Source: a virus
Lineage: Duplodnaviria; Caudoviricetes
Strand: one strand, 5' to 3'
IMG/VR virus record: IMGVR_UViG_3300043411_001213
Coordinates: 1-55,986 of that record
Length of the DNA stretch: 55,986 nt
In this document: piece by piece, positions 36,556 to 55,352 of the stretch
Layout: each line of letters begins with the position of its first letter
Position numbering within the stretch: the first letter of the stretch is position 1
Notes under the pieces: generated by a model
The model's database searches: none
What the model was told of the DNA's origin: nothing
Seen by the model: only the letters and a program-made list of their open reading frames with translations
Translations under genes and position numbers: made by a program

Positions 36556-36585
36556 ATGGTACGAAATAAAATGTACTTATGGAAG
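36556..36585 (-). promoter_or_regulatory. Putative late promoter (tail tube)
   Basis: CTTCCAT-N17-TACCAT. Confidence 0.65.
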
Positions 36586-36596
36586 TATCAGCGATA

Positions 36597-37010
36597 TCAA
36601 TAGGTGGAGTTGAAACTAAACTCGACCTTCAACTCTTCTGAGACCCATCCGTCTCGCGGAACCCGCTTGCCTGGCCGCGGCACAGCGCACTGCACACCGC
36701 TGACCTTTACGAGTTTGAACAGACTCGTCAGGTAATCGAACATTGACAGCTTCGTGCGCGTACCCGTGCCCTCTTTCGTGAACAAGGTCAACACCACTTC
36801 CCCAGTCACCTCATGACTCGGCGACGCATCGATGTCGTACTGGAAGGCGTCCATGAAATCGATCTCAACACGCAGGAAACAGTCTCCGACACTGTTCATA
36901 TCTATCTTCAGAGTGTTGTCATAGAAGATACGGTTGGACGGGTAGGTGGTCGTCCAGCCGGTGTTGATATGGGCGACGAGCGCGTCACGGGCAGAAACGT
37001 AGGTGCTCAT
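36597..37010 (-). CDS. Tail terminator-like protein
   Basis: Position upstream of the tube gene; 137 aa. Confidence 0.6.
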   Translation of the reverse strand: MSTYVSARDALVAHINTGWTTTYPSNRIFYDNTLKIDMNSVGDCFLRVEIDFMDAFQYDIDASPSHEVTGEVVLTLFTKEGTGTRTKLSMFDYLTSLFKLVKVSGVQCAVPRPGKRVPRDGWVSEELKVEFSFNSTY

Positions 37011-37537
37011 AGTTGCGACGTCCTCAAGGTGGTCAATTTCATGGCGTCAATGATCTTGTAACGATTGCGCACGAAGTAAGCGCCCCGCTGCACCACGCGA
37101 TCGGCGTTCGGGTTGACCGGGCGGAAGTCGATCTGCCCGTTCTCGATCTTCCAGGCGTAGGCTTCTTCGTGGCTGGACGAGTTCGACAGAAAGATCGGCG
37201 TGCCTAGCGGTGCCTTGCGGGCTCGGGCCGCGCCGGCAACCGCATGCATCTTGGCAAAGTCGATCGCCTCCTCGTCGCCCTTTTCATACGGCTCAACCTC
37301 GTCGCCACGCAACGAGGCATTTGCCTCTTTCTGATAGAAATTCAGCGGGTCATCACGGGCAACAAACGATGGTGTGTACGGTGTCAGCTGCCAATTGGCG
37401 ACAAACTGCCCGGAATACTGCGGGCTCTGATACAGGATCTCGTTCAGTGCCGTTTCGGCAAGGCCAACGGCTGCCTCCTGCGCCGCCCGCTTGGTCTGCG
37501 CAATGAAGCCGGCTATCTGGTCAGTGAACTTACTCAC
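37007..37537 (-). CDS. Neck protein (HK97 gp10-like)
   Basis: GTG start at 37537; SPQYSGQFVANW and IFLSN...YAWKIE segments. Confidence 0.65.
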   Translation of the reverse strand: MSKFTDQIAGFIAQTKRAAQEAAVGLAETALNEILYQSPQYSGQFVANWQLTPYTPSFVARDDPLNFYQKEANASLRGDEVEPYEKGDEEAIDFAKMHAVAGAARARKAPLGTPIFLSNSSSHEEAYAWKIENGQIDFRPVNPNADRVVQRGAYFVRNRYKIIDAMKLTTLRTSQL

Positions 37538-38367
37538 GCTCGCCTCATGTGCAGGCTGACAGTGGTACCCTCGTCCTGCACAGACAACACACGCCACACA
37601 CCATCAGACAATGTCAACAAATCAGACGGGGCTACGCTCGGCATCGCCGTTTTCAGCGCCATCACCTGAATGTCACCGCGCTGGTAGGTTTCGTCGGCTT
37701 TGGTCAGGTAGTGGAAGTGCTCTGACCACTTGACGCGAAGCACGCGTACGCTGGAATTTGAAGCGCTATACGTGTCGGTCACCGGATCATAGGTGCGGTC
37801 ACCGTAGGTCACCGTCTCGAACGCAGGCTCGTCAAGTTCGTTGGCCAGCGCAATGCGCAAACCGCTTGTGCTGATGTACGACTGCTTCACCAGGAACCAC
37901 TTGCCGTCCAACTGGATCAAGCTGTCGGCAGGTGCCGACTCGCTGCCGGCGAGGAACACTTGATACTGCGGCGGGTAGCGAGAATTGTCGTTGGCCTCGG
38001 GCATGTACTTGCTGAAGACCAAGGCGGCGTAAGCTGTGACCGGTGCGGTCTGGGCAATGGCGCTGGCGATCGAGTGAAGATTGGCAAGGCCCGTGGCCCC
38101 CTGAATGACGTAGGACACGCGGATGACCTCGCCCATCCAATAGTCAGGTGCTCCGTGACCCACGACGTATTGTTCACCGTCGATAGTGATCGCGCCGCGG
38201 GCAGGCATGACGATCTCTGGCGCCGCAGAAACCATCCGCTTCGTAACCGAAGTGCCGTCAATCTTACTGAAGCTCATCGGTTCGTACTGCACCATGAACG
38301 TGGTGGTGCCGTAAGCGTCCTGCGCCTGAACGTTGTCGAACTTGCGAGCCACGCGCTTCAGCTTCAT
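37534..38367 (-). CDS. Head closure/head-tail joining protein
   Basis: Position; YDPVTDT and beta-rich C-terminus. Confidence 0.55.
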   Translation of the reverse strand: MKLKRVARKFDNVQAQDAYGTTTFMVQYEPMSFSKIDGTSVTKRMVSAAPEIVMPARGAITIDGEQYVVGHGAPDYWMGEVIRVSYVIQGATGLANLHSIASAIAQTAPVTAYAALVFSKYMPEANDNSRYPPQYQVFLAGSESAPADSLIQLDGKWFLVKQSYISTSGLRIALANELDEPAFETVTYGDRTYDPVTDTYSASNSSVRVLRVKWSEHFHYLTKADETYQRGDIQVMALKTAMPSVAPSDLLTLSDGVWRVLSVQDEGTTVSLHMRRA

Positions 38368-38846
38368 ACGTTGGTGATCGGATCGGTTCCGAGGCCGACC
38401 TTGGTAAAATAAACTCGCGCAGTCACCGAGGCTGACGAAGATCCAAGTGCTGTGAATGCCTGCATCAACTTGGTCTTGGCCCGGTCATATTCTTTCTTGA
38501 CAGAAGAGATCACGTCTTTGTACGGGTTGTCGAAGCGTGTCGCCTGAGCCTTGCCGTCGGTTTCCTGCTTCAGTGCAAACAACGGCAGACTACCCGACAG
38601 CTGCTTGGCCAATGCAAATGTTGCGAACAACTTGGCGCTGTTCAGGAACCGGAGTTCGGCATCAGTCGGACTGGCGATTGCCGCCGTACTGGTGAATGTT
38701 GCTGGTAGAGTGAGACTGACTTCTTCGAGCTCCATGGTCAGATAGTTCTCGTACACGGTGAGCCCCAACGTACTGTCCTCGATGTCAGTGACGTCGACCC
38801 CAAGCACGGCCCGAACTTCGTCCGGTGTGGTGTATTCGGCGATCAT
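38364..38846 (-). CDS. Head-tail adaptor
   Basis: YTTPDEVRAVLGV; position after the capsid block. Confidence 0.6.
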   Translation of the reverse strand: MIAEYTTPDEVRAVLGVDVTDIEDSTLGLTVYENYLTMELEEVSLTLPATFTSTAAIASPTDAELRFLNSAKLFATFALAKQLSGSLPLFALKQETDGKAQATRFDNPYKDVISSVKKEYDRAKTKLMQAFTALGSSSASVTARVYFTKVGLGTDPITNV

Positions 38847-39025
38847 TCTTCAACGACCAGAACCAGACCGCGATCGATGTTGTCCTGCAGCCACGGGTGC
38901 ATTTCAACAATGCTCGGCGTCTTGGTGATGTTCTTGTTCATGACCAGATCCACGAACAGGTCGAATTTGGAAATGACTTTGACAAGCTCGGGCTTCTGGG
39001 CTTTGGGTGCTTTTTGTTCGGCCAT
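38843..39025 (-). CDS. Small virion-associated protein (60 aa)
   Basis: AGGAG RBS; ATGA overlap with the adaptor gene. Confidence 0.6.
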   Translation of the reverse strand: MAEQKAPKAQKPELVKVISKFDLFVDLVMNKNITKTPSIVEMHPWLQDNIDRGLVLVVEE

Positions 39026-39047
39026 GATTTTCTCCTACGGATGCCCG

Positions 39048-39077
39048 ATTCTATGGCGTCAGGTGTGTTGATGGAAG
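39048..39077 (-). promoter_or_regulatory. Putative late promoter (head completion block)
   Basis: CTTCCAT-N17-TAGAAT. Confidence 0.65.
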
Positions 39078-39084
39078 GTGACAC

Positions 39085-39112
39085 TTGACATTTGGAATTG
39101 CTCATGTAGTAT
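39085..39112 (+). promoter_or_regulatory. sigma70-like promoter of the inserted endonuclease
   Basis: TTGACA-N16-TAGTAT. Confidence 0.55.
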
Positions 39113-39145
39113 TCATCGTGTCACTTGAATGAAAGCATACTAAGA

Positions 39146-41014
39146 ATGAAAAAACTTTCACAGATGGAATTTATCGACAAAGCCTTGAGTCGTGCCAAGC
39201 GCCCTATCGATCTAAGCATGTTCGTCTACGTCAATTCATCAACAAAAGGAGTTGCGATCTGCCCGACTCACGGTGAGTTCCTCATCTCTCCAAACGCCCT
39301 AATGAATCGGATAGGCTGCCCTCACTGCGCTCTGATAGAGCGGTCATACAAGCGGAGAATGACTCATGAGGAATTTATCGTCAGGGCCACTGAACGGCAC
39401 GGCGAGGTGTACGATTATTCACTCGTGAAATACGAGGGGTCTCAGGGGCGTGTGAGGATAATTTGTCCAACTCACGGGGAGTTCTCTCAATCGGCCAACG
39501 CCCACATCGCTGGACAAGGTTGCCCAAAATGCGGCAACGAGCGCGTCGGATTGAGGGTCAGGCTGTCTCAGGACGACTTTGTTTCTCAAGCGCGAAAGAT
39601 ACATGGCGACAGATATGACCTGTCAGAGGCTATCTACCTTGGCCGCACAAAAAAGATAACTGTAATCTGTAAAAATCACGGTGCTTTTTACCCGACGGCA
39701 GGTAACTTCGGCTACCTCGGTAGCGGCTGTCCTGCGTGCGGTAGGGCACGCGTTGGTGCCAAGTCAAGGAAACCTCTATCGCACTATGTTGTTGCCGGAG
39801 CAAAGAGGCACCTCGGCAGATACGGTTACAGCGGGTTATTTTACGAAGACGCAACAGCGTACCTGAAGATCATCTGCCCTGAGCATGGTGAATTCACCCA
39901 GATAGCCAATGACCACCTAAAGGGGGTAGGCTGTGAGAAGTGTGCTCGACCGATCTTTAACACCTCAACATTCATCAACGCGGCAAAGAAGATACATAAC
40001 GGGAAATATGGGTACGACAAGGTACGATATTCCGGAGCCACGGATAAGGTCATCATTACATGCCCAAATCACGGAGATTTCACACAAACCCCAAATATGC
40101 ATGCCAACATGGCTCAGGGCTGCCCTCGCTGTGCCAAGGTCGGGCCAAGCACAGGGCAATTGGAGATATTCGATTTCCTCAACAAATACTCAAAGCCAGA
40201 ACTTGGTTTTAAAATCGGAAGAAAGGAATTGGACGTTTTCATCGCTGAGAAAAACATCGCTGTCGAGTATCACGGTCTAATTTGGCACTCATCAATGTTT
40301 CAGAAAGACTTGACAAGGGACTTCAAAAAACACCAAATTGCCGCCGCCATGGGAATTCGAGTGATCCATGTTTACCAGGATGAGTGGGAACAGAAACGTC
40401 CGATCGTTGAAAAGATATTGCTCAACGCAATCGGGTTTCGCGACGTATCTATTTTTGCCAGATGTACGTCTGTTCGACCGATCGACGAATCAGAAGCATC
40501 TAAGTTTTATGCAGAAAACCATATTCAAGGCGCTGTCGGTGCCCCGTGCGCCACACTGGGGCTATTCTCTGAACAAACGCTCGTCGCTGCAATGTCGTTT
40601 TCAAGGATTACGAGCATGCGTGGAAGGGCGAGATCCAACAGCGAATACGAATTGCGCCGTTATGCAACTTCAACCAATGTTGTCGGCGGTGCTTCAAAAC
40701 TCCTGAAGGCTTTCGTTCGAGCAACCCCAGAGTGCTCTAAGATCATATCGTATAGCGATAATAGAATGTTTGCAGGAGGCATGTACGCACAATTGGGGTT
40801 TGTGCTCGATCACGTTTCAAAGCCCAGTTACAGCTACGTAACTTCAAACTCGAGGCTCGGCAGAATGCCTAAGTCCAGATTCAGGAGGAATGCCCTAGCA
40901 TCAATGCCAGGGTTTACCTTCGACCCCTCAATGTCAGAGCGCGACAATTGTGCTGCCAATGGCTATTATCAAATTCACGACTGCGGAAAGACGCGTTGGG
41001 TGCTGACTCTCTGA
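39146..41014 (+). CDS. Hef-like homing endonuclease: five Zn repeats, PD-(D/E)xK domain and Mom/GNAT-like C-domain
   Basis: Five CxxHGxF...GCxxC repeats; ELDVFI...AVEYHGLIWH; ENHIQG, YELRRY, GGASKL, SYSD, YAQLGF and DCG. Antisense to the late operon and more AT-rich. Confidence 0.78.
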   Translation: MKKLSQMEFIDKALSRAKRPIDLSMFVYVNSSTKGVAICPTHGEFLISPNALMNRIGCPHCALIERSYKRRMTHEEFIVRATERHGEVYDYSLVKYEGSQGRVRIICPTHGEFSQSANAHIAGQGCPKCGNERVGLRVRLSQDDFVSQARKIHGDRYDLSEAIYLGRTKKITVICKNHGAFYPTAGNFGYLGSGCPACGRARVGAKSRKPLSHYVVAGAKRHLGRYGYSGLFYEDATAYLKIICPEHGEFTQIANDHLKGVGCEKCARPIFNTSTFINAAKKIHNGKYGYDKVRYSGATDKVIITCPNHGDFTQTPNMHANMAQGCPRCAKVGPSTGQLEIFDFLNKYSKPELGFKIGRKELDVFIAEKNIAVEYHGLIWHSSMFQKDLTRDFKKHQIAAAMGIRVIHVYQDEWEQKRPIVEKILLNAIGFRDVSIFARCTSVRPIDESEASKFYAENHIQGAVGAPCATLGLFSEQTLVAAMSFSRITSMRGRARSNSEYELRRYATSTNVVGGASKLLKAFVRATPECSKIISYSDNRMFAGGMYAQLGFVLDHVSKPSYSYVTSNSRLGRMPKSRFRRNALASMPGFTFDPSMSERDNCAANGYYQIHDCGKTRWVLTL

Positions 41015-41017
41015 AAT

Positions 41018-41050
41018 AAAAACCCCGGGCATGCCCGGGGGTTTGTTTTG
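41018..41050. terminator. Bidirectional intrinsic terminator
   Basis: AAAAA-CCCCGGGC-AT-GCCCGGGG-GTTTGTTTT between convergent genes. Confidence 0.75.
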
Positions 41051-41061
41051 GCTTTACCTCT

Positions 41062-42237
41062 TTACGCGTACGTCAGGCACTCGAACGCATCATTGAAAAG
41101 TCTGCGACAGATGGTGCCGAAGTCGAAACGCATGGCTGAGCCACGACGGAGCACGAAGTCTTCCTGAGCCTGGTAAGAGGCGTTGGTCGAATTCACACGC
41201 TGAATGGCGTAACGGGTGTCGAGACCGAGGACGGTCTTGGCAGGCCAGCCCACAGACGGGTCGACGATGAACACAGGCAAGTCGGCCATCCAGGTCGGGT
41301 TCGACACACGAACATTGGCGTCGATGCGCGGGCTGTTCGGGTTGTCACCAGTGATGACCGGCTTGCCCGTACGACCTTCAATTGCCATGGCACCAGCGAT
41401 GTCGGTGACAAGGTAATTGATCTTGCGCTTCTTGCTGTTTTGGTACAGCCACAGCATCCAGGCCTTCTGGGTGATGCCGGAGGTGGCAGCGGAGTCCAGA
41501 GACAGAGCCGTGGTGACCTTGCCCAAGGTGGACAGAGAGGCTTGACCCATGTCGGCGTCACCGTTCAGCAGGGTGAGCAGGTTCTGGTTGGCACGATCAT
41601 TGCGCTCGACGGCGACCTGACGGGCGATAGCCAGAGACAGCAAGTCGAGATTGACGTACTTGGTGGCTTGTTCGGACCATTCGATACCCAGAGAGTAGGT
41701 CGGGATACGAACCGACTTTTCGCTCGTGGTAACGGACATCATGGTTGCCGGCTTTGCCAGTTGCGAGGTGACTTGTGAACGGGCAGCTTCCGGGCCAGCG
41801 AAGTTGATTTCCGGCCACAGGAGCCATTCGTCAGCGATGGTGTCGTCCTGAGCAATGATGCGGTCAAATTCGTCCGCGTTCATGTTCAGGTCGGCAACCA
41901 GCTTGTCTTCGACCAGGGCGCCGATAGCAGGCATCAGCAGAACGCGGCCTTGGTTGCTCGGGTTGCGGACGATGGCGCCAGCTTCCAGCAACGGACGACC
42001 ATTCAACACAGCGTCAAGGCTGGAAGCCTTCATGCCGTACTGCTTGTTCGGTTGCAGAACGATGCCTTCGGAGGCGCACATCTGGGAGAAGGCGTCGCCG
42101 AACCTGTCGGCATCGGTCGTGTAGGTGGAATTGACATAGTCGCGGAACGACATGCCGTTTTCCTTAGCGGCCCGGACCATGTCCAGGTTGGCTTCGATTT
42201 GTTGAGTTGCGCCAGAGGCGTCGATAAATGCTGCCAT
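41062..42237 (-). CDS. Major capsid protein
   Basis: 391 aa, AAGGAG RBS, optimised codons, follows protease and decoration genes and precedes a terminator. Confidence 0.8.
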   Translation of the reverse strand: MAAFIDASGATQQIEANLDMVRAAKENGMSFRDYVNSTYTTDADRFGDAFSQMCASEGIVLQPNKQYGMKASSLDAVLNGRPLLEAGAIVRNPSNQGRVLLMPAIGALVEDKLVADLNMNADEFDRIIAQDDTIADEWLLWPEINFAGPEAARSQVTSQLAKPATMMSVTTSEKSVRIPTYSLGIEWSEQATKYVNLDLLSLAIARQVAVERNDRANQNLLTLLNGDADMGQASLSTLGKVTTALSLDSAATSGITQKAWMLWLYQNSKKRKINYLVTDIAGAMAIEGRTGKPVITGDNPNSPRIDANVRVSNPTWMADLPVFIVDPSVGWPAKTVLGLDTRYAIQRVNSTNASYQAQEDFVLRRGSAMRFDFGTICRRLFNDAFECLTYA

Positions 42238-42248
42238 GTTGTTTCTCC

Positions 42249-42716
42249 TTAGCTAACGCGTTCGATCACGGCGTACTGACCAACAGCACCGCTGCCCTCA
42301 AGGGACACGATACGCCAGGCGAAATACATGCCGGTTTGGGTGGTGGCTTTACAAACCTTGGGCGGAACAGTCAGAGCAGTGCCCTTGGCAACAACAGTAC
42401 CGGTGACAACGTAATCGCCGACAGCACAGGTGCCGGTACCTGGGGTGGCTTGAAGGCCGTCCAGGGTGACACGTTTGCGGCCCTGAGAGTTGACCGAGCC
42501 GATCGAGAAGTCATCAGCCGTGTAACCTTCAACAGCGGTAATGAAACCTTCGATCTGATCACCAACGGCGGTCAGGTTGTACAGCGAGTCTCCGATCAAC
42601 TTGACCGGCTTGCCGATTTCAACATCGGTCAGGTAGTTGGCAGAGCCAGAGGCCGAGCCAAGGCGAGCGGTGACCGGTTCGGTACCGATCAGTTCCTTCA
42701 TTTGAAACTTAGCCAT
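42249..42716 (-). CDS. Capsid decoration/cement protein
   Basis: 155 aa, beta-rich, between protease and capsid genes. Confidence 0.65.
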   Translation of the reverse strand: MAKFQMKELIGTEPVTARLGSASGSANYLTDVEIGKPVKLIGDSLYNLTAVGDQIEGFITAVEGYTADDFSIGSVNSQGRKRVTLDGLQATPGTGTCAVGDYVVTGTVVAKGTALTVPPKVCKATTQTGMYFAWRIVSLEGSGAVGQYAVIERVS

Positions 42717-42728
42717 GGTTTGGCCTCC

Positions 42729-44207
42729 TTACTTTGAAAAACGAACCGCATTCACGCGGGCTTTGTGACGCGGGTCGATCTGCGTCTGTTGGTTAGAGGC
42801 CTCGCCCTGAACTGCAGCAACACCACCGACCGGATACTTCTTCTTGAACTGTTCGCTGAGGCGTTCATGTTCAGCGACCAGTGCTTGCGCACTCATGCCT
42901 TCGGCAGCAACCGCCGAGCCGCCGAGAGCGATCATCATGTTGCCCACCGACTTGGCTGCAATAACCAGTAGCGGATCGTGGGTGGCCTTGGCTTCAGCCA
43001 GGGCTTCCTCCAACTTGGAAACCTTGATGCCGGCCTCCAGAATGGCCGCATCCTTGGCAACGATCTGCGAATTCAGCAACTGCACAGTGGCCTGCAAATT
43101 GTCAACTTTTGCGACCTCGGCCGTCAGTTCACCATTCGCGGCGTCGGCTTGCGCCTCGACTTCCGCACCGGCTTCAGCCCCAGCATCGACAACAGCCGCC
43201 GCATCATTTTGTTCCTGAGCTTCTTCGCTTTTGTTATCGACCTCAGCAGACAAGGCTGCCCCGGCCGCCAACGCTGCGATGTCCTGCTCGGTCAGAGCTT
43301 TCTTACCCATGAGAGTGTCCTCGTTCAGAGTGGTTGTGCTGTTTCCGGCGATGCCGGTACCAGATTTGCCGCGATTTTGCAACATTCCATTGGCTGATGG
43401 AAGGCCGTTCCGAATGCCGGAGATCAACCTGTCGAATGAGGTGATGCCGTCGGTCAAGCCAACATCCACCGCAGCCTGCCCGATGAACTCGCGACCTTGG
43501 GCCATGTTCTCTTTGACGTATGCAACAGACTTGCCGCGCATTTCGGCAACAGCCTCATCAAACACATTCGCCGCGGCGTCGACAACCTGTTGAATTTGCT
43601 GCTTGCCGTCAGCACTCAACTTCTCAACACCGTTGGCAAGGGCCTTCCACTTTCCGCTGCGCACCACAGTGGCGCCAATCCCATTCATCTTAAGTTGCTC
43701 GGAACGCTCCATGTGCGTGCTGAGCACTCCGATCGAGCCAACCACAGCAGTCTTGCCCGTGTAAACTTCGCCAGCAGCTGAGCCGAGCCAATAGGCCGCG
43801 CTGCACATCGTGCCATCACAGTAGGCGGTAACTGGCTTGACCCCGTTGATCGTGCGGATGAGCTTGGCCGTGTCCTCGACCCCACTCACAGCACCGCCAC
43901 CGGAATCGATATCAAGCACAATGTGCTCAACAGACGCGTCCTGGAAGGCGCCGATAAGCGCGTCGCGAATCTCCGGATAGCCCGTCATGCCCCAAAATTC
44001 GTTCCAGAAACCGGAATCGTTATTGAGCGACCCCTTGATTGCGATCGTAGCAATGCCGTCCGCAACTTCAAGCAAGCGCGGCTCTTCTTCGTCGTTGTCT
44101 TCTGGATAGGTGCCGGCCGCCAGCCGCGCCGTCTTGCCGTCATCGGCATCGATCGCTGCTTGCAGGCTCTGCTCCGTCCCTGCCCAAATGAGTTCTTGAA
44201 TCGCCAT
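42729..44207 (-). CDS. S49 (SppA-type) prohead protease with C-terminal scaffold
   Basis: LDIDSGGG, CSAAYWLGS, GSIGV and GLTDGI motifs; acidic coiled-coil C-terminus. Confidence 0.9.
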   Translation of the reverse strand: MAIQELIWAGTEQSLQAAIDADDGKTARLAAGTYPEDNDEEEPRLLEVADGIATIAIKGSLNNDSGFWNEFWGMTGYPEIRDALIGAFQDASVEHIVLDIDSGGGAVSGVEDTAKLIRTINGVKPVTAYCDGTMCSAAYWLGSAAGEVYTGKTAVVGSIGVLSTHMERSEQLKMNGIGATVVRSGKWKALANGVEKLSADGKQQIQQVVDAAANVFDEAVAEMRGKSVAYVKENMAQGREFIGQAAVDVGLTDGITSFDRLISGIRNGLPSANGMLQNRGKSGTGIAGNSTTTLNEDTLMGKKALTEQDIAALAAGAALSAEVDNKSEEAQEQNDAAAVVDAGAEAGAEVEAQADAANGELTAEVAKVDNLQATVQLLNSQIVAKDAAILEAGIKVSKLEEALAEAKATHDPLLVIAAKSVGNMMIALGGSAVAAEGMSAQALVAEHERLSEQFKKKYPVGGVAAVQGEASNQQTQIDPRHKARVNAVRFSK

Positions 44208-46837: not shown

Positions 46838-48142
46838 TTAAGTCTCCGAAAGTTGTTTGACGCCGATCCAGTGGAAGCGAACCCGTAGTTTTGCTGTAGT
46901 CGAACCGGGGAATATGCGGGCGCGGAAAGATGCGGTGGCACTGGTCATGCCAACCGGAGCCGTGAAGGGGTCAGAATGGAGAACGATTCGCCGTCCAGCC
47001 AGCCAATCACCCCAATGCAGGCCAGTTGGCCCGCCAATCGCCGGGCATGTGCCGGTTCCGCCACCCAACTCATTGAGCAGTTGAAAGCCGTAGTTTTCGC
47101 ACTCGACTACCTCAACGTCGCACAGCGCCTCATGCGCGGTGACGCCTGCGGTGTAGTTGGTTCCGTAATTGGTTGCGGCTAGGTCATGCGCGTCAAATCC
47201 GGAATACGCTGGGCCTGAGTACGTCCATAGTGCCTCGAACCCGTCTGCCGTCTGCGTTCCAATGACCGAACAACCTGCTCCCGGTGCATATAGTTGGAAG
47301 TTGTCGGGGGCCACTCCTGCAGCATTCGTGCCGATTGTCCCGCCTGTTCCGGCCACGGTTGCATTTCGGCTGCATATAACGTGCGCTGGCTTTGGTGCCC
47401 ACGGCGCGTACAAGCCAGCCATTTCGTCAGCGCCGGCAATGCCGAGCTTTAGCGCACCCTGGAGGTTTAGGTGCGTGCCATCCGAGGTATATCCGGACAG
47501 AGGAACCGGGTAGTTGTTGGAGTCTCCCGTGTCGCGGTACGGGTCCGTCCACGGCAGGTTTGCAACGTAGCCACTCGCCGCACGCATCGTTGTCTGAAGA
47601 TCGGCAACGATGGTCTTTTTTACCAACGTGTTGAACGTCACGCACGGAACCGGCTCGCTGGTAATCGCCCCCCACCCCTCGGCAGCAATCAGTGCCTGCA
47701 TGGCCTGATAGTCCGACCAGATGGATACTGCTGCCGTACCGCTGTTGATTGAATTGATCTCAGCGTGTAGCGCAATGACAGCGCGACGACCGCCGACAGC
47801 GGCCCGCATTTGACTGATATACGCCGGGACAGATGCCAGCACTTGCGCAGACGACGCGCCGACCCGCCCATAAAAACCGTTCAGTAGCTTGTTTGCCCAT
47901 GTCGAACCGGGGTCCATCGTCAGCGCAGGGGCTGACACATGGGCATAGTCGAACGGTTTCCGCAGGCAGGCGTTCATCCATTTATGGTGAGCCGCCGCCG
48001 CTTGCCCCTGCCAAGACCATTCCGACTGGTCAACACATTCCCCTGCGACCAGCGAATGCCCGACTGCGCCGAGAATTGGCCGGATGACAGACCGCCCCGC
48101 AGCAATCACGCCACCGGACGAACAGGAGTAGGACTCGCCCAC
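46838..48142 (-). CDS. SGNH/GDSL-like hydrolase with C-terminal beta domain
   Basis: GES, GRVG, EINS and DGTH motifs in SGNH block order. Confidence 0.55.
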   Translation of the reverse strand: MGESYSCSSGGVIAAGRSVIRPILGAVGHSLVAGECVDQSEWSWQGQAAAAHHKWMNACLRKPFDYAHVSAPALTMDPGSTWANKLLNGFYGRVGASSAQVLASVPAYISQMRAAVGGRRAVIALHAEINSINSGTAAVSIWSDYQAMQALIAAEGWGAITSEPVPCVTFNTLVKKTIVADLQTTMRAASGYVANLPWTDPYRDTGDSNNYPVPLSGYTSDGTHLNLQGALKLGIAGADEMAGLYAPWAPKPAHVICSRNATVAGTGGTIGTNAAGVAPDNFQLYAPGAGCSVIGTQTADGFEALWTYSGPAYSGFDAHDLAATNYGTNYTAGVTAHEALCDVEVVECENYGFQLLNELGGGTGTCPAIGGPTGLHWGDWLAGRRIVLHSDPFTAPVGMTSATASFRARIFPGSTTAKLRVRFHWIGVKQLSET

Positions 48143-48150
48143 GGGATGCC

Positions 48151-48549
48151 TTAGAAGTGGGTGAATTCGTGGGTGATAGCAGCCACAGAGTAAGTGCCAC
48201 CAGAGCTTGCTACCGTCGCGCCGAAGTCATCAATTGCCACGATTTTGTTGCCGTCCGTCGTGTCGATGATGGCCGCGCCAGTTGCGCTAATCGTGGTTGC
48301 GCCAGGCCATCCAGCAGGAGTGAATACGATCACCGTTTTGTGGTTCGTCGTATCCGGAGTGACCGTGCAAGTCACATCACAGCCGCCTGCGGTGTAGAGC
48401 GTGCCGGTGACTTCCGTCAGGTGAGCCGATGTCGAATCGGTAGCGCGGTTGTAAGTGCTGATGTCGATCAGCATACATTTCAGCGTGTTGGTTTCGAGTG
48501 CGGCCAACTTGCTGTCAAGGTATGCGTCAGGAATGTGAATAGTTGCCAT
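48151..48549 (-). CDS. Putative virion structural protein (132 aa)
   Basis: AAGGAG RBS; LKCML...EVTGTLYTAGG...DFG pattern. Confidence 0.6.
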   Translation of the reverse strand: MATIHIPDAYLDSKLAALETNTLKCMLIDISTYNRATDSTSAHLTEVTGTLYTAGGCDVTCTVTPDTTNHKTVIVFTPAGWPGATTISATGAAIIDTTDGNKIVAIDDFGATVASSGGTYSVAAITHEFTHF

Positions 48550-48554
48550 TGGTC

Positions 48555-48854
48555 TTACTCCTTGCGGTAAATATGGTTGTTTTGCGTGTGTTCCATTTCG
48601 GAAACGTAAGCAGATGCGCAGTGATACGGGTCGTTGAACAGCCAGTTGATAAATGCTTCAGTGCGCTTGCGGTGGGTTCTGTGTGCCCAAGCCGATATCG
48701 TTTCGTCAGCGTAGGCGCCAGGGAGCAGGCAAGTGGCCAGCCACTGATCCTTGGCGACCAACATCTGCATACCATTGAGAATCCATCCGACTACGAAGAG
48801 AAGGACCCACACGAACCCAATTGCGGCAAAGACGAATGTGATCGAGCTGAGCAT
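48555..48854 (-). CDS. Hypothetical membrane protein
   Basis: N-terminal TM; DETISA...INWLF..HC motif. Confidence 0.65.
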   Translation of the reverse strand: MLSSITFVFAAIGFVWVLLFVVGWILNGMQMLVAKDQWLATCLLPGAYADETISAWAHRTHRKRTEAFINWLFNDPYHCASAYVSEMEHTQNNHIYRKE

Positions 48855-49063
48855 CAGAAGACCGCCCTCACAAACACGCGCCCGTCGTCGTATGTCTTTC
48901 CGTCCGGCGGAACACAGAAATGAACGTCAGTCTTCTCAGTGAGAAAATGCAGCCCGCGGCGATCGAGTGCCAGGCGACTGCCGCGACGACCGTTGGTCAT
49001 GTGTTCTGCGCAGTACGACCACATCTCTTCAACGGTCATACCAAGATCAAGCATTTGACTCAT
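48854..49063 (-). CDS. Hypothetical protein (69 aa)
   Basis: Coupled overlaps with both neighbours. Confidence 0.5.
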   Translation of the reverse strand: MSQMLDLGMTVEEMWSYCAEHMTNGRRGSRLALDRRGLHFLTEKTDVHFCVPPDGKTYDDGRVFVRAVF

Positions 49064-49455
49064 GTTGAAACCCCAAGCAGCTTGGCCATGGCCGGGCCAA
49101 AACCGAGCTTCCAGGCCATCCCAAGGAGGGCTAGGGTAGCCATGAGCTTCACGACGACAAACAGACCACTCACACCGTGCTTGATGGCTTCAGACTTCGC
49201 TGTGTGCCAGAACTCTTCCTCAGCCTGAGCGGCACGGATCTTTGATTCGTGATACTCACAGTGCCCGGTCAGGTCGCCGCTCGGAAAAGCCTCGGTCTTG
49301 AGATCACCGATCAGCTTGTTGATCCAGTCCCTCTCACGATCCTCGTGATCCTTAAGCATTTGCTTAATGTCAATTTCAAGTTGCTCAAGGGTCTTCGAAT
49401 AGACGCGACGATTCGGCCCAGTGTATTGCTCAGTGACGATGATTTCTTGAGTCAT
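49060..49455 (-). CDS. Membrane protein next to the lysis genes
   Basis: YTGPNRR and a C-terminal TM. Confidence 0.6.
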   Translation of the reverse strand: MTQEIIVTEQYTGPNRRVYSKTLEQLEIDIKQMLKDHEDRERDWINKLIGDLKTEAFPSGDLTGHCEYHESKIRAAQAEEEFWHTAKSEAIKHGVSGLFVVVKLMATLALLGMAWKLGFGPAMAKLLGVST

Positions 49456-49883
49456 TTGCTTGCCCCACTCTGTTGCTCAACCCATCCTTGCAGGAAGTTC
49501 AATTGGTTGGTGGTTTCGGCACACCCCGCTGCAAGTTCGAGGGCAGCAGGTATTGGGTAGTCGCTGGCTTCATCAGCTCGGGTGGAGGGGTTGGAAAGTC
49601 CGGGCATTGCACCGGCACCAGGTTGTGCCCGCAGGCGCACAGGGTGACTGCGCAGATAAGCGATAGAGGCTTCATATCCATCTTGAATGTCCTTGGTGAT
49701 CTGTTTCTGTTCTTCGACGAGCTTCTCAGTGGCAGCATTCTGGGCATTACCAAGTGCCGTGACCTGCGCACGGTATTCCGCAAAATCATCCGCAGACTTG
49801 CGCCACAAAGCCCCTGCCAGCAGTGTCGTTGCAAGTAGGATTCCGATCAGCGCAAACCGCCAGTTGGCCATCAACCAGATCAT
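49452..49883 (-). CDS. Rz: i-spanin
   Basis: N-terminal TM, coiled coil, C-terminal C...QL..LQGWV; contains an embedded lipoprotein gene. Confidence 0.8.
   Translation of the reverse strand: MIWLMANWRFALIGILLATTLLAGALWRKSADDFAEYRAQVTALGNAQNAATEKLVEEQKQITKDIQDGYEASIAYLRSHPVRLRAQPGAGAMPGLSNPSTRADEASDYPIPAALELAAGCAETTNQLNFLQGWVEQQSGASK
49499..49675 (-). CDS. Rz1: o-spanin lipoprotein embedded in Rz
   Basis: MKPLSLICAVTLCAC lipobox and Pro-rich CPDFPTPPPELM. Confidence 0.8.
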   Translation of the reverse strand: MKPLSLICAVTLCACGHNLVPVQCPDFPTPPPELMKPATTQYLLPSNLQRGVPKPPTN

Positions 49884-50101
49884 TGCTTAGACTCCACGAA
49901 GGCTTTGAAAATGTACCCGCCAAAAGCGCAGATCGGCGCGGTTACGGCAGCAATGATCGCTGCTATCTCCATGCCGTTACGAGCGTTGCCGGTGGCGAAC
50001 CACATAGCCCAGTCGGAGACTGCCCAGGTCATCCAAATAGCCGTGGTCAACACGACAGTGCGGGTCGGTATGTACTTCGAGACGTAGTCGGTGGCGTTCA
50101 T
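49880..50101 (-). CDS. Holin (2 TM)
   Basis: GGAGG RBS; two hydrophobic helices; lies between lysin and Rz. Confidence 0.65.
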   Translation of the reverse strand: MNATDYVSKYIPTRTVVLTTAIWMTWAVSDWAMWFATGNARNGMEIAAIIAAVTAPICAFGGYIFKAFVESKQ

Positions 50102-50544
50102 TCGACCTCCAACCAAGATTCAATACCGAGCTCCGCCGCGTCATCTATCTGGTCGATAATGCGCTGGACAGTATCTGCACATTTAGCGATACCAGAGCTT
50201 GTCCGCACCTGACCGACGCCAACGCAGCCGAGCAGGTCGCCAGGGCCGTTTGCTCCATGGATTCGTATGCCGGAATAACCGGGGACATCCAGAACAGCGG
50301 GAAGAACGCGCTGAAAGCGGTTGGAGAACGAAGTGATGAGCCGGTATCGGCCACGAGGGATAGCTGTGCGCCCATAAACCTTCCTTTCGGAAATGTCTTC
50401 CAGACTGCGTTCAAGGAACCGGTCCTCGTCCTCCAAGGACTGACAGAAAAACACATTGTCGAGATACACCCGGCCAAGCGTGTAGTTCTCGGCACCGGCA
50501 ACACGGGTCACCGGCTCGCGAACAACTTTGAACACCTGTCTCAT
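50098..50544 (-). CDS. Putative endolysin (DUF5675-like, His/Cys catalytic motif)
   Basis: TLG...SLED...AIPRGRY...IRIHGAN...GCVGVG; occupies the endolysin slot. Confidence 0.65.
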   Translation of the reverse strand: MRQVFKVVREPVTRVAGAENYTLGRVYLDNVFFCQSLEDEDRFLERSLEDISERKVYGRTAIPRGRYRLITSFSNRFQRVLPAVLDVPGYSGIRIHGANGPGDLLGCVGVGQVRTSSGIAKCADTVQRIIDQIDDAAELGIESWLEVE

Positions 50545-52082
50545 GCTTCACCCATGTTCAGAGGAATGACGTTTTCCGCCTTCTTGTTCTGCCCACGCCC
50601 TTGTGCCGGCTGATCGGATTTGATCTTCTGGTTGAGCGTGCTGCCATCGTTGGACGGAGTGGCCGCAGGGTCAGAGCCTGCAGGTGTGGCACCGGCGGCT
50701 GGCGCCTTGAATCGTGTGCCAGAAAGCGGCTTGAAGCCGGCCGGTGGCAACTTGCCAGTCAGCTGCAAACTGGCCTCCTCATCTGTCAGGAAACCGAGAT
50801 CCAGCTGTTCAAGGATCATCATCTGGCGCGTCTGCTTGAAGGCCATCAGTTCGCTTGCCGGCCGAATCTCGATCTGCTCATATTCAAAGCTCACATAGCC
50901 ATCGACACCCATCAGGCGGACGGCCACTGTCAACAGCCGTGAGTAAATCTCGTTCAGCTTTTGGCGAACAGAACTGTCGACCGATCGGATATATAGGGCC
51001 ACCTGCGTCGAAGCGATGTTCGAGCTCGACGAACCGGATTCAAGGCCGAGAACCGACGGTAGGGTTTTGCTACCCGACGCCAGCTTGGCGTTGGCGATAT
51101 CGCGCAGCGTCTCGTAATCGCTGGCGCTACCGGTCGGCACTTCCACTTCGAAACCGAGCGAGTCGAAATAAACAAGTGCGTCTTCCGGTTGCAGCGTGTT
51201 GACCTGTTGCTCAATCTGAGAGATCAGGCTGGCCATTTCGGCGCGAGCCTTCTCCTCGTCCATCTGTGCTTCCGGGGAGAGGTTCTTGCGGAACATCTCC
51301 TCGTCGATCGTCACCTTCAGGCGAGGATGAATGGCGCGACGCATGACGCGGGTCAGGTCAGCCATGAATGTTTCGCTGAAGATGACAGCCTTCAGAGCGG
51401 GTTCAAGCGGTGACGTTGGGTACGGGCTGAGCATGTCGGCGTCAAGCTGGACGATCGCAACAGTCGGCACGTCTAGGTCAAGCTCGTCGCTGCCAACCTT
51501 CTGGATAGGCTTGACACCGTTGCCATCCGGGCGGAACTGTACAACCGTGCTCGAAATCGGCTGAATCCGATACGGCATGCGAGCCTTGTCCAGGACCAAC
51601 TCGGCTGCCATCTGACCGTACATCACCGCATCGCGTGCTAGAGACTCGCTACACGATTTGATCGAGCCGTGACCGGTGTAGCCTTCCAAGGGGTCACCAA
51701 TGACGTCGAACCGTGTGAGCAGGGTCTGCAGGAGCTTGGTAGCCTCAACGTTGAGGACGCCGTCCATGTCACGAGCCACGGCAACGTACTTCTCAGGCAC
51801 ACCGATACGGATCGCCGTGTAAACAGCGTTGCTCAACTCCGGCGAGCTGGCCACAAGATCCTGAAGAACCTTGTGCGTCCCGCTGCCGTTGCGATACGTC
51901 GTGACGTCAGTGTTGACCAGGCGGCGCTCCGGCCGAGTGATCACCGCATCAGCAGGCTTCGTCGTCTGGAAGAACGCCGGCCACGAGCGCATACCGGGCT
52001 TCGCCTTGATGGGAGCCACGGGAGCGAGCTGACTGGCAGCTTCTACCTTGCGGTCAAACAGTGATCTGAAGCGTTCGAACAT
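50541..52082 (-). CDS. Portal protein
   Basis: 513 aa directly after the terminase large subunit. Confidence 0.8.
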   Translation of the reverse strand: MFERFRSLFDRKVEAASQLAPVAPIKAKPGMRSWPAFFQTTKPADAVITRPERRLVNTDVTTYRNGSGTHKVLQDLVASSPELSNAVYTAIRIGVPEKYVAVARDMDGVLNVEATKLLQTLLTRFDVIGDPLEGYTGHGSIKSCSESLARDAVMYGQMAAELVLDKARMPYRIQPISSTVVQFRPDGNGVKPIQKVGSDELDLDVPTVAIVQLDADMLSPYPTSPLEPALKAVIFSETFMADLTRVMRRAIHPRLKVTIDEEMFRKNLSPEAQMDEEKARAEMASLISQIEQQVNTLQPEDALVYFDSLGFEVEVPTGSASDYETLRDIANAKLASGSKTLPSVLGLESGSSSSNIASTQVALYIRSVDSSVRQKLNEIYSRLLTVAVRLMGVDGYVSFEYEQIEIRPASELMAFKQTRQMMILEQLDLGFLTDEEASLQLTGKLPPAGFKPLSGTRFKAPAAGATPAGSDPAATPSNDGSTLNQKIKSDQPAQGRGQNKKAENVIPLNMGEA

Positions 52083-52110
52083 TCGACGTGAACCCCAATT
52101 GGTTGCACGG

Positions 52111-52140
52111 AATGTATCAAAACACTGTTCACCATGGAAG
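52111..52140 (-). promoter_or_regulatory. Putative late promoter (portal-lysis)
   Basis: CTTCCAT-N17-TACATT. Confidence 0.65.
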
Positions 52141-52149
52141 GCACTTTCT

Positions 52150-52184
52150 ACATTAACTAGACACTGTCAACATTAACTAGACAC
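52150..52184. repeat. 15-bp direct repeat ACATTAACTAGACAC, two copies
   Basis: Copies at 52150-52164 and 52170-52184. Confidence 0.85.
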
Positions 52185-53879
52185 GTTGGATTTCACCTTG
52201 AACGTGCTCAACAACGGTATCGAGCCACCGCCACCGGTATCGGACACGCCGAGAATGTGCTTCGCGAGGAACGCGTAGCTCAACGAGAACCAGAAGTGAT
52301 CATTCCCAAGCTCAGACTTGATCCATTTGAACTTGATCTCCTGCGTACGCACGTCCCAGTCCTTGACCCGGCGCATGTCCGTGCAGTGCTCAACGAACTC
52401 CTTGTCCAGCGGGCAATGCAGCACCGAGAACTGACCAGAACGGATATAGGCCATCAGTGCATCGAACGTCTTGTCACGGGCCACGTTGATTTGCCGCAAC
52501 TGCTGCAGGCCCCGTTCGTCGTCCTCGTCACGCTTCTTGATACTAAACAGTTCCACGCCTTTTGTCTGGCTGTAGACAGATGCGTACAGGTTCTGGTCAA
52601 TCGCCTGCAGGGTCAGCACCATATCTGTGTATGGCAGCGAGTCAATCACAGACAGGCGCACGCGATGTTGCAGGCGCAGTTCCTTGTACCGCTCCTTCAA
52701 CATCTGCAGCGGCACCTTCTCCTTGTGAACCACCTGCATGGAACCGTCGTAGCTCGTGTTGGCCACGATGATGTGACAGGTCATGCCCAAGTCCACGCCC
52801 ATGACCGCGGCAGTCGTCCCGGGAAACTGTGAATGCACAATCGTGCCCTGAATCTCTTCAGGCGACAGCACCGACTCCTGCGAGAAATAAGGCAGCCCAA
52901 GGTTGAAGTTGATAAAGTCAGCAATGTTGCTGTACTGGGTCGATGCCTCGATCAGATAAGATGGCGTGATGATCCGCGGCGCATCAAACGGCGCCACCTG
53001 GAACCCCTCAGCCACATGGTTCTCACTCGGATTCTCACAGACCCACTCCCGGTGCTCTGGCGATAGATCCGGTCGACCCCCACAACTCGGACACTCCACA
53101 AACGCGTTGGCGTAATCGATCGAATGCAGGTTGCGCTTTGTGATGTCCTGCAGGTCACCGGTAAAACCGGGTATCTTGATGTGGCTGTAGTAGTCCGGGA
53201 TGAAGAAGTGGCCGCAATGATCACACTTCACGAAATTGAAGTGCCGCCTCGAACGCTGGAATTCGAAGTCAATCCCCTTCCCCGGGATCGTCGGCGTGCT
53301 CAACTTCGTCTTCATCTTGTGCGGCGAGTGCGTCAGGCGCGACTGGTACTGGCTGATCACCAACGGGTCGCTGAAATCCAACTCGTCATGAACTAGTGCG
53401 TCGGCCGGAATCGAGATCGGCGCATTCGAACTGGCAGCCCCTTTCAGGTACAAATAAGACGTGCCCAACTGCTTGACCTCGACGTTGTCCGTGTCAGTCA
53501 ACAGGTCCTTCAGATATGGTGACTCCTGAATCACCGGATTCACTCGCGTCTTCGCCAGCGTGGCTGCGAACGTCGCCGTCGGCAGCGTGTAAATCACGGT
53601 GAAATTCTTGATCATCCCGCACAGTGCCAACGACTTACGCACCGACAACTCAGAGATACCGACCTGCGAACACTTGCGAATGATCGTCTCACGGGCCTTG
53701 CTATCAAGGATCCGCTGCTGATACTCGTGATCCTTGTAGCTGTACGGCTTTCCGCCAATAAACGTGTTCTCGGCAATCCAGCGAGAAATCTCCTCGATCG
53801 CAACTGCCTGAGAAGCACCGGCCTTCAGGCGCTGCAAATGATTCTTGAATGCCTCCAGATCGAAATGAACCCGGCTCAC
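52173..53879 (-). CDS. Terminase large subunit (lambda GpA-like)
   Basis: YQQRIL, RKCSQVGISE, HDELD, STPT, CxxC pairs, GVDLG and NDHF motifs. Confidence 0.88.
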   Translation of the reverse strand: MSRVHFDLEAFKNHLQRLKAGASQAVAIEEISRWIAENTFIGGKPYSYKDHEYQQRILDSKARETIIRKCSQVGISELSVRKSLALCGMIKNFTVIYTLPTATFAATLAKTRVNPVIQESPYLKDLLTDTDNVEVKQLGTSYLYLKGAASSNAPISIPADALVHDELDFSDPLVISQYQSRLTHSPHKMKTKLSTPTIPGKGIDFEFQRSRRHFNFVKCDHCGHFFIPDYYSHIKIPGFTGDLQDITKRNLHSIDYANAFVECPSCGGRPDLSPEHREWVCENPSENHVAEGFQVAPFDAPRIITPSYLIEASTQYSNIADFINFNLGLPYFSQESVLSPEEIQGTIVHSQFPGTTAAVMGVDLGMTCHIIVANTSYDGSMQVVHKEKVPLQMLKERYKELRLQHRVRLSVIDSLPYTDMVLTLQAIDQNLYASVYSQTKGVELFSIKKRDEDDERGLQQLRQINVARDKTFDALMAYIRSGQFSVLHCPLDKEFVEHCTDMRRVKDWDVRTQEIKFKWIKSELGNDHFWFSLSYAFLAKHILGVSDTGGGGSIPLLSTFKVKSNVSS

Positions 53880-54304
53880 ATCAGGCCCGCTTTCGTCGCC
53901 ATGCGCTCGTACTCGGCAAAGAACTCATTCTTGACCGGTTCAGGCAGCGTCTTGATCGCCTCCACCAGGCACGACTCCATCACCTTCAGCGTCTGCTCCT
54001 TGCGCAGGTCCTCCTGCAGCTTCACCAGCTGCCCAAGCGTCGACACTACGGCATTGCACACCTGCGCCTTCTGGTTGGCAGGTGTGTCCATGTCACTGAG
54101 CACCTCATCCATCAAGCCCTTGGTCTTTCGATACTGCGAGACCAACTCCTCCTCCAGATTTAGGTCTGCAATGGCGTCACTCGGCAACCGATCGAGAATC
54201 TCATCAAGGAGCTCGCGCAATTGCGACTCGTTCATCAAATCCAGTGAGGGCGCCTGGTGCTCGAAGAGCGGGGTTTTTCCGGCGAGCTTGTCTTGGTTAA
54301 TCAT
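53876..54304 (-). CDS. Probable terminase small subunit
   Basis: Helical 142-aa ORF coupled (ATGA) to the large subunit. Confidence 0.55.
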   Translation of the reverse strand: MINQDKLAGKTPLFEHQAPSLDLMNESQLRELLDEILDRLPSDAIADLNLEEELVSQYRKTKGLMDEVLSDMDTPANQKAQVCNAVVSTLGQLVKLQEDLRKEQTLKVMESCLVEAIKTLPEPVKNEFFAEYERMATKAGLM

Positions 54305-55352
54305 TGTGCAATTTCCGCTTCCCATCCATCGTCCAAAGCAACAGTTCCGCCAACGCTACCTGATGATTGAAGCCCATGGCACTGACCTCAGACCACGTCA
54401 GGTCGTAAGCTCGCAGGTGCGAGTTGAACAGCCCGGCCAAAATCGCCGGATCGACACCGCGAGAGGCCGCGATTTCGTTCAATGGCGCCTCACCGAGCAG
54501 GACCCCAACGAGCATGCGCACAAGCTGCGCATCTCGCCACGACTGCGGTGTTTCAGGGTATTTCGTCGATTTTCTGATGAAAAGTCGTGAAGATTCAGCG
54601 ATTTTCATCCATTTTTCCGCATAAAACGGCAGTTTTTTGTCAATTTCTTCAGCGTACGCACGCTTAAAGGTGTCCGGAAATGCGGCCAAATCCTGTATTT
54701 TCAGCGGTGAAATCTCTTCAATCTTGCGGAAAATCGTCCTGCTGGAGATGCCCAACTCATCAGCCTTGTCCTTGGCAGAGGCTTTTCCAGCCAAAACATC
54801 CAGCGCTGCCTCGTATGCTGCGGCCTTTCGCTTGGGCAAAGTCGGCTCAGGGCGGGTTCTTTTGATGGCACCAGGGGCGAATCCGTATTTCCGACGGATG
54901 CCGTGGAGCGTGTATTTGGCAATGCCAAGGGCAGCGGCCCCCTGATCGAGGCTGACCACACCGAGTTCAAGCCTTGTCAGCGTGTCGTAGAGGGTCTCCA
55001 GTCGGTCACCCCAATTTGTCAGGATTAGCTTCAGGCTCTTGATCGGCAATTTGAGCATCTTCGACGCATCGTCCGGCGTGATGATCCCCTTCTGCACATT
55101 GAGCAGGGTCGGGATCGTGTCCCGCGGCTTGAGAATGACCTTTGGATCCGCTGACTTATCCGACCCGGTCAGTGGCAGAAGATCGAGGACTTCGACATTG
55201 TAGAAGTTCGCCACTTTGATGATGTGACTGTCCGGGATGCGATTCACCTTGCGCCACCGATAGATAGCTGCCGGTGTCAGCTTCAGCTCTCTGGCCAGCT
55301 TGGTCGGGTTATTGGTCAGGGTCGTGACCGAGGTCAGGTCTGGTGAGGCCAT
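54297..55352 (-). CDS. Multi-HTH DNA-binding protein
   Basis: Cro-like TKLARELKLTPAAIYRW plus further HTH-like segments, e.g. LDQGAAALGIAKYTL and KDKADELGISSRTIFR. Confidence 0.65.
   Translation of the reverse strand: MASPDLTSVTTLTNNPTKLARELKLTPAAIYRWRKVNRIPDSHIIKVANFYNVEVLDLLPLTGSDKSADPKVILKPRDTIPTLLNVQKGIITPDDASKMLKLPIKSLKLILTNWGDRLETLYDTLTRLELGVVSLDQGAAALGIAKYTLHGIRRKYGFAPGAIKRTRPEPTLPKRKAAAYEAALDVLAGKASAKDKADELGISSRTIFRKIEEISPLKIQDLAAFPDTFKRAYAEEIDKKLPFYAEKWMKIAESSRLFIRKSTKYPETPQSWRDAQLVRMLVGVLLGEAPLNEIAASRGVDPAILAGLFNSHLRAYDLTWSEVSAMGFNHQVALAELLLWTMDGKRKLHND
54353..54382 (-). promoter_or_regulatory. Putative late promoter (terminase), variant
   Basis: GTGCCAT-N17-TAGCGT about 50 nt upstream of the small subunit start. 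Confidence 0.45.

Follow-up and report, generated by a model that had tools for sequence, protein, structure and literature searches.

Late promoters of phages Mu (activators C and Mor) and P2/P4 (Ogr and Delta) combine a usable –10 element with a poor –35 element and need a small phage DNA-binding activator, and activators of the Mu C/Mor and P2 Ogr type bind dyad-symmetric sites upstream of or overlapping the –35. Thermus phage P23-45 favours extended –10 (TGn) promoters late. In the middle promoters of T4, the MotA box (a/t)(a/t)(a/t)TGCTTtA is centred at –30, 12 ± 1 bp from the –10 element, and about half of these promoters carry TGn (PMC2988021). Here we describe a candidate promoter class in IMGVR_UViG_3300043411_001213, a single linear virus record of 55,986 bases with a CheckV completeness of ~77%. 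The whole record is referred to as the window, and positions are those of the window unless another contig is named. Its minus-strand genes, from 55.3 to 21.9 kb, form a siphophage virion arm, in which an earlier note, made from the letters alone, had placed five late promoters whose –35 was replaced by a T(T/A/G)CCRT box. Four of these sites are, on the strength of their sequence, well supported as promoters with a lineage-specific upstream box.

All five sites are present exactly as that note gave them, with its coordinates, minus strand, sequences and 17-nt spacers. Each of the four main gaps between genes of the virion arm holds one of sites 1–4, at the head of a gene block. Site 1 (36556–36585, CTTCCAT-N17-TACCAT) lies in the gap 36466–36596, 11 nt past the stop codon of the tail-terminator gene and 90 nt 5′ of the ATG of the major tail protein gene (36465). 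Site 2 (39048–39077, CTTCCAT-N17-TAGAAT) lies in the gap 39026–39124, back to back with a plus-strand TTGACA promoter (39085) and 22 nt 5′ of the ATG of a 60-residue open reading frame (ORF) that heads the head-completion and neck block. Site 3 (44232–44261, CTACCGT-N17-TAGATT, with TGg before the –10) occupies the gap 44208–44266, 24 nt 5′ of the ATG of the head maturation protease gene, whose block comprises the protease, a 155-residue protein and the major capsid protein. Site 4 (52111–52140, CTTCCAT-N17-TACATT, with TGa before the –10) is in the gap 52083–52172, between the stop codon of the large terminase gene (52173) and the ATG of the portal gene (52082). At sites 2–4, the –10 ends 22–28 nt 5′ of the ATG. 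Site 5 (54353–54382, GTGCCAT-N17-TAGCGT) falls within the 3′ end of a gene for a 351-residue protein with several helix-turn-helix (HTH) units, and is treated separately below.

To these sites we could align those of two uncultured relatives, L023, a metagenome contig with blastn blocks 73–87% identical to the window, and L001, an IMG/VR contig with blocks 65–81% identical and a portal protein 82% identical. The alignment comprises 12 sites, with site 5 and a pair of matches in coding sequence (window 35164, L023 18291) set aside. The CC of the box proposed in the earlier note is not invariant, as L001 has CTATCGT, CTATCCT and CTTTCAT; a conserved box at the –35 position does stand, better written CTWYCNT (CTTCCAT at three of the four window sites) and placed exactly 17 bp from a TAnnnT –10. 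T1, A2 and T6 of the –10 are present at all sites, and a C directly follows the –10 in 11 of the 12. Up to this point the sites resemble canonical σ70 promoters, with a TAnnnT –10 and a 17-bp spacer (14 of 14 pattern matches). Unlike those, they match TTGACA poorly (TTCCAT at 2/6 positions, TACCGT at 1/6), and none of the five sites passes a σ70 consensus scan that requires at least 4/6 in the –35. In the window and in both relatives, TGn precedes the –10 at sites 3 and 4, as in extended –10 promoters; sites 1 and 2 and an additional L023 site at position 740 differ from these in keeping the box without TGn. A –10 combined with a poor –35 is shared with the late promoters of Mu and P2/P4. Unlike the dyad sites of Mu- and P2-type activators, the box is asymmetric, and no dyad or repeat symmetry is common to the 12 aligned sites.

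The closest parallel is with the T4 middle promoters. In both cases a phage box takes the place of the –35 next to a retained host σ70-type –10 (here, as read from the sequence), no phage polymerase is involved, and TGn is found at part of the sites (two of four here; about half in T4, PMC2988021). The two systems differ in geometry, the MotA box lying 12 ± 1 bp from the –10 (PMC2988021) versus 17 bp for CTWYCNT. They differ also in their genes, since the T4 class serves middle genes and the present one virion genes, and in that homologues of the MotA C-terminal domain and of AsiA were not found in the 56 kb. A full-text literature search for the motif in phage promoter papers returned nothing relevant.

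In the window, TDCCRT-N17-TANNNT matches five times, at exactly the five sites and only on the minus strand; 100 shuffles gave a mean of 0.73, and 0/100 reached five. As this pattern was drawn from the sites, the count is circular, and a test of bare 7-mers was non-significant (see below), so other, independent tests were needed. We scanned the gene-sense and antisense strands of the three genomes for CTWYCNT-Nx-TANNNT with x from 10 to 25. At x = 17 there were 14 sense matches (five in the window, six in L023, three in L001) and no antisense match, with none at x = 16 or 18 and 0–1 per strand at every other spacing. Taking as the rate the 0.37 matches per strand seen at other spacings, the Poisson P value for at least five matches is 4e-5. 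Beyond sites 1–4, the x = 17 matches are the 35164/18291 pair and the L023 site at 740. The eight sites of the two relatives alone were also used to build a weight matrix, with which the window was scanned on both strands; the top four positions in the whole window are sites 2, 4, 3 and 1 (scores of 22.5, 20.6, 19.3 and 16.8). The weight of this result lies in the set of sites, not in any single one. The frequency of the motif elsewhere, a point raised in the earlier note, shows no excess in distant relatives: there are no matches at N17 in 17 terminase relatives (152 kb), one sense and two antisense matches in 20 capsid relatives (254 kb), with no enrichment, and two sense and two antisense matches to TWCCRT-N17-TANNNT in 58 other related loci (619 kb), the same as for other spacers. 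The motif is restricted to one lineage.

Comparison of orthologous sites points the same way. Site 1 reads CTTCCAT/TACCAT in the window and CTTCCAT/TACTAT in L023 (L001 does not cover it). Site 2 is CTTCCAT/TAGAAT in the window and L023 and CTATCCT/TAGAAT in L001. Site 3 is CTACCGT/TAGATT in the window and L023 and CTATCGT/TAGATT in L001, and site 4 is CTTCCAT/TACATT in the window, CTTCCAT/TACAGT in L023 and CTTTCAT/TAATCT in L001. Between the window and L023, 28/28 box positions and 22/24 –10 positions are identical, compared to 45/68 in the spacers (Fisher P = 1.3e-4, box versus spacer); the corresponding values for L001 are 16/21, 15/18 and 20/51 (P = 0.009). The spacer is 17 nt long at every orthologous site in both relatives, even at site 2 in L023, where spacer identity falls to 3/17 and a 3-nt indel lies just upstream, and at site 3 in L001, where the spacer has also diverged. 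Boxes and length kept over an almost replaced spacer are the footprint expected of a two-box promoter. The additional L023 site at 740 (CTTCCAT-N17-TATTAT) heads a 6-kb cassette of fibre-like genes that is absent from the window and encodes a 1170-residue protein, a lectin-like protein and a fibre-adaptor-like protein. A possible further site in the window (35135–35164, minus strand, CTACCCT-N17-TAAACT) lies in the tail-chaperone extension ORF, 117 nt 5′ of the tape measure ATG; its matrix score of 13.6 is under the mean shuffle maximum of 14.8. The same sequence is found in L023 at 18291, but conservation says little in coding sequence, and we leave this site as a possibility.

More close relatives were sought among viral contigs, with the protease and the 351-residue protein as queries, and none was found; nor did a 23-mer taken from the beginning of the major tail gene, matched exactly, yield any. 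The 19 loci related to the major tail protein (at most 53% identical) are uninformative on site 1 because their upstream regions, mostly hairpin and T-run elements, are not alignable.

Site 5, which the earlier note had assigned to the terminase genes, is rejected as a member of the motif. It misfits the refined box (G at positions 1 and 3), is followed by T, not C, after the –10, and is absent from the top 15 matrix matches. Its letters are codons that specify SAMGFNHQVAL; this stretch belongs to a C-terminal peptide that hardly varies across 44 homologues, and the sequence of site 5 is thus explained by the protein. A related strain in runs X15/X16 has two synonymous changes at site 5, one of which turns hexamer position 2 from A to G. 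Judged on these features, site 5 is probably a chance match, and the terminase genes are probably transcribed together with the HTH gene from a TTGACA promoter at 55408. The order HTH gene, 149-residue gene, terminase gene is kept in sister lineages, and a dyad element of those lineages, ATAG-N7-CTAT (see below), was not found upstream of their terminase genes.

The second promoter class carries an exact TTGACA. The earlier note had listed four such promoters, at 55844, 55408, 5109 and 39085, before regulator or early genes, and these can be read directly in the sequence. On the minus strand, TTGACA-N17-TACACT (55816–55844) precedes a 90-residue ribbon-helix-helix-like gene and TTGACA-N18-TACTCT (55379–55408) precedes the 351-residue HTH gene; on the plus strand, TTGACA-N16-TAGAAT (5109–5136; 11/12 to consensus) precedes gene 5183–5962 and TTGACA-N16-TAGTAT (39085–39112) precedes a 629-residue HNH/Mom-like gene, 39125–41014. 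From the exact hexamer at all four it follows that the host polymerase reads a standard –35. The data support two promoter classes, exact TTGACA at regulator-like or early genes versus the conserved box at four virion blocks. The 629-residue gene (DUF723, a treble-clef zinc finger, a weak Mom-like match and a PHROG of HNH/homing endonucleases) is reversed between the capsid and head-completion genes, where L001 has a different reversed gene.

Two exact copies of GTGTCTAGTTAATGT flank a TTGACA at 52150–52184 (minus strand), just upstream of site 4, in an operator-like arrangement, and TCTAG-rich sequence akin to these repeats surrounds the promoter at 5109 (5089–5135, plus strand). GTGTCTA occurs in four intergenic regions, a number reached in 54 of 2000 shuffles. 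The GTGTCTAGTTAATGT repeats may be the operator of an early regulator.

Downstream virion units need promoters of their own, because a terminator-like, GC-rich palindrome with T runs on both sides (41023–41040) follows the capsid gene and a hairpin with a T run (35770–35805, minus strand) lies just past the stop codon of the major tail gene. The palindrome divides the site 3 unit from the site 2 unit. The leader of the major tail gene (36466–36552, minus strand) forms three hairpins starting close to the predicted transcript start (–32.2 kcal/mol, z –3.5, 1/200 shuffles as good) and are largely kept in L023. This leader, together with the 3′ hairpin and T run, would suit an abundant, stable monocistronic message.

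We propose that each of sites 1–4 serves as promoter for one of four consecutive virion transcription units: portal and a 6.4-kb block of unknown genes (site 4); protease to capsid (site 3); head completion, neck and tail terminator (site 2); and the major tail protein and tail genes (site 1). The host RNA polymerase holoenzyme would read the σ70-type –10, the poor match to TTGACA would keep the virion promoters weak on their own, and a phage protein made from the TTGACA promoters would recognise the box and turn the virion genes on late. Such a factor might be an activator, a σ-remodelling factor or a σ encoded on the missing part of the genome. We put the probability of this reading, namely host polymerase, a σ70-type –10 and a phage factor reading the box, at about 0.55; the sequences themselves show the elements, where they lie, that they are conserved and that one lineage alone has them, and promoter activity, late timing, use of σ70 and the factor itself are what we infer. 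That a phage factor is required at sites 1–4 seems to us an even bet or slightly better. The stronger claim, of a switching system not described before in which a 7-bp box at the –35 distance is read by a phage protein and the –10 by host σ70, is tentative, and so is the idea within it that box and reader co-evolve, with sister lineages using other boxes at the same junctions. Of the promoter switching put forward in the earlier note, the two classes and the retained σ70-type –10 stand, and the terminase site is likely false.

A number of results weigh against the proposed reading. CTTCCAT is found in three of the 16 intergenic regions covered by the unbiased 7-mer test, and this is not significant (1500 of 2000 shuffles reach three for some 7-mer). 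Single matrix scores are little above the shuffle maxima (mean 14.8, maximum 20.6; 20 shuffles). The motif is carried by three genomes only, the conservation of the L023 and L001 sites, as orthologues of the window sites, reflects in part shared descent, and the box varies in L001 (CTATCCT, CTTTCAT). TGn could make sites 3 and 4 independent of a –35 contact. Six-frame searches of the 56 kb with PF09158 (MotCF) and PF09010 (AsiA) gave no match at E ≤ 1, the N-terminal family of MotA not having been searched, and the 351-residue HTH protein is also found in sister lineages with other motifs. Contigs from four metatranscriptome runs (depth 2–9) are too short and shallow to show 5′ ends. Three of them end at 36503–36536, near the predicted start of the major tail transcript at ~36549, which carries no weight, and the same is true of the fact that among the contigs listed none bridges 36537–36621, as such contigs cannot show ends.

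The main rival is that these are plain weak σ70 promoters, helped by TGn at sites 3 and 4, at which the –10 suffices and no phage factor acts; the box would then be kept through close kinship and selection on the TT at hexamer positions 1–2. TTCCAT does have TT in common with TTGACA, all three genomes carry TGn at sites 3 and 4, and the looser box of L001 fits as well. Upstream of the portal gene, moreover, σ70-like promoters are present in more distant relatives: TTGCTT-N17-TACACT in L002, TTCGCA-N17-TACAAT in L003 and TTGnnn-N17/18-TAnnAT in L025–L038. However, the 7-mer turns up at four non-homologous locations, with a further one in L023, it is kept at 28/28 positions where spacers are kept at 45/68, and drift of a weak –35 would not hold C at box positions –1, +4 and +5. 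Under this explanation, the most abundant proteins of the virion would also be made from promoters that the consensus scan rejects, despite perfect TTGACA hexamers elsewhere in the genome. We rate it as rather unlikely, though more probable than the rivals that follow. Among these, pure chance is very improbable: the pattern was designed from the sites and the bare 7-mer test was non-significant, yet the spacer control, the strand bias, the cross-genome matrix, the conservation and the background loci all oppose a pattern fitted after the fact.

The box could instead be the operator of a phage repressor that overlaps the –35 and holds the virion promoters off early. A short conserved sequence at that position, the operator-like direct repeats adjoining site 4, and the ribbon-helix-helix-like and HTH proteins encoded under TTGACA promoters speak for such an arrangement. 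Nevertheless, the box lacks dyad or repeat symmetry, sites 1 and 2, with neither a –35 nor TGn, would still have no way to recruit polymerase, and a strict 17-bp distance to the –10 suits polymerase geometry better than a free-standing operator; we consider a repressor improbable. Equally small odds attach to a phage σ factor that reads the promoters and whose gene is on the missing ~23% of the genome or too divergent to detect. An asymmetric box of 7 bp at the canonical –35 distance is like the target of σ region 4, and the record is linear and ~77% complete. Set against this, the six-frame search of the 56 kb gave no match to Sigma70_r2, Sigma70_r4 or Sigma70_r4_2, a complete 82.9-kb relative (G002) has no r2 domain, and the –10 is of the host σ70 type. 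Known phage σ factors usually have a –10 of their own, which also counts against such a factor.

As to which protein might read the box, PHROG and Pfam scans of the window proteins revealed no RNA polymerase or σ factor. The six-frame searches with PF04542, PF04545 and PF08281 (Sigma70_r2, r4 and r4_2) covered the 56 kb of a genome ~77% complete and gave no match at E ≤ 1, and this agrees with the earlier note, which had recognised neither protein. It is possible that a regulator or σ factor is encoded on the missing ~23%. Within the window, the best candidate is the 351-residue multi-HTH protein (54297–55352, minus strand), which is made from a consensus promoter and stands at the head of the virion arm. 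Its family has at least 91 homologue clusters in metagenomes, and the gene order 351-residue HTH protein, 149-residue protein, large terminase, portal is kept in relatives. The protein is predicted to fold into a string of HTH units (pLDDT 91.6). Foldseek gave no match to it at E ≤ 0.001, and VIA-align gave single-HTH matches only, with Z scores of 4.5–6.2: Cro/cI type at residues 6–64, DeoR/TrpR type at 169–244 and LuxR type at 275–342. One source labels a homologue 'Mor family transcriptional regulator' (P0035); the match of Mu Mor (1rr7) to the 351-residue protein has a Z score of 4.5, within noise for helical domains. In G002, a sub-threshold r4-like match (16.2 bits) lies within the homologue of the 351-residue protein. 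A σ-like or MotA-like fold is unsupported for this protein, the fold matches being generic and confined to single HTH units. There is roughly one chance in three that the 351-residue protein reads the box; it could equally be a DNA-binding protein for the packaging site.

If a phage factor does read the box, this would be a second, unrelated solution to the problem that MotA and AsiA solve in T4, in which the host polymerase is retargeted by swapping the –35 contact alone. Such a system would come from a group of widespread uncultured phages of freshwater and wastewater; DNA runs of several studies contain the stretch. It would be compact: the box is 7 bp long, the 17-bp spacing is strict, and each genome has four to five sites. 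Reporter assays could hence test it directly, and orthogonal transcription elements might be made from its parts. Should no factor be needed, the sites would be ordinary weak promoters, and the finding an aid to annotation only.

Other boxes at the same junctions in sister lineages would offer a natural series for the co-evolution of promoter specificity and reader. In L025–L038 (terminase 65–71% identical), the recurrent element is the dyad ATAG-N7-CTAT, which occurs on both sides of the portal gene: upstream, where it overlaps the TTGnnn-N17/18-TAnnAT promoter, and once more downstream; examples are L027 7755 and 9428 and L038 7842, 9492, 9580 and 12347. In a third lineage (L051, L052, L054 and L060), TGATCC...TTATGG/TTATAG...TAnnnT was seen, by eye only, upstream of the portal, protease and major tail genes. 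L059 and L060, two relatives of this phage group, are in genome bins labelled Coriobacteriia and Myxococcales, and one of these two contigs, at 78 kb, is as long as an entire phage genome. They are probably mis-binned phage DNA, and the bins are for this reason no guide to the host.

The remaining features of the record concern its layout. Plus-strand genes from 1 to 21.7 kb form an arm for replication and nucleotide metabolism, with primase, DNA polymerase, exonucleases, ligase, SbcCD-like proteins, deoxynucleoside monophosphate kinase, deoxycytidine monophosphate deaminase and thymidylate synthase; several HNH endonuclease genes interrupt it. The virion arm begins with the 351-residue multi-HTH protein, the 149-residue protein, the large terminase and the portal, and continues through 6.4 kb of family-less ORFs to the protease, the 155-residue protein and the major capsid protein. 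The plus-strand HNH/Mom-like gene comes next, then the head-completion and neck genes and the tail terminator, and the arm ends with the major tail protein, chaperones, tape measure, and tip and fibre genes. Nearly all of the ~14 ORFs in the 6.4-kb block between portal and protease (44267–50544, minus strand) are without a family, the exceptions being DUF5675 at 50098–50544 and a PHROG of unknown function at 48555–48854. The corresponding block is only ~2.1 kb in L001, and L023 shares parts of it only.

At its right end, the record terminates in a tandem hexamer repeat (GGGCGT, plus strand; 55930–55986), and the first ORF there is open at its 5′ end. Together with the CheckV estimate of 77%, this suggests a break of the assembly at the repeat and the loss of an early region from the record; the missing ~23% presumably lies beyond the TTGACA promoters at this end. 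A megablast of 36000–55986 against deposited phages gave no match. No annotated relative was usable, because protein matches to deposited phages are at most 36% identical, as seen for the terminase, capsid protein and polymerase against named phages. For the early gene 8353–9231, a search for function gave no usable result. In the region 5162–6958, the longest ORFs are on the minus strand (5162–6064 and 6149–6958) and are probably not genes. The likely genes there are on the plus strand, at 5183–5962, which has Pam3 gp34-like and Gp3-like neighbours, and at 6191–6883, which encodes an RNase T-type exonuclease (E = 1e-18).

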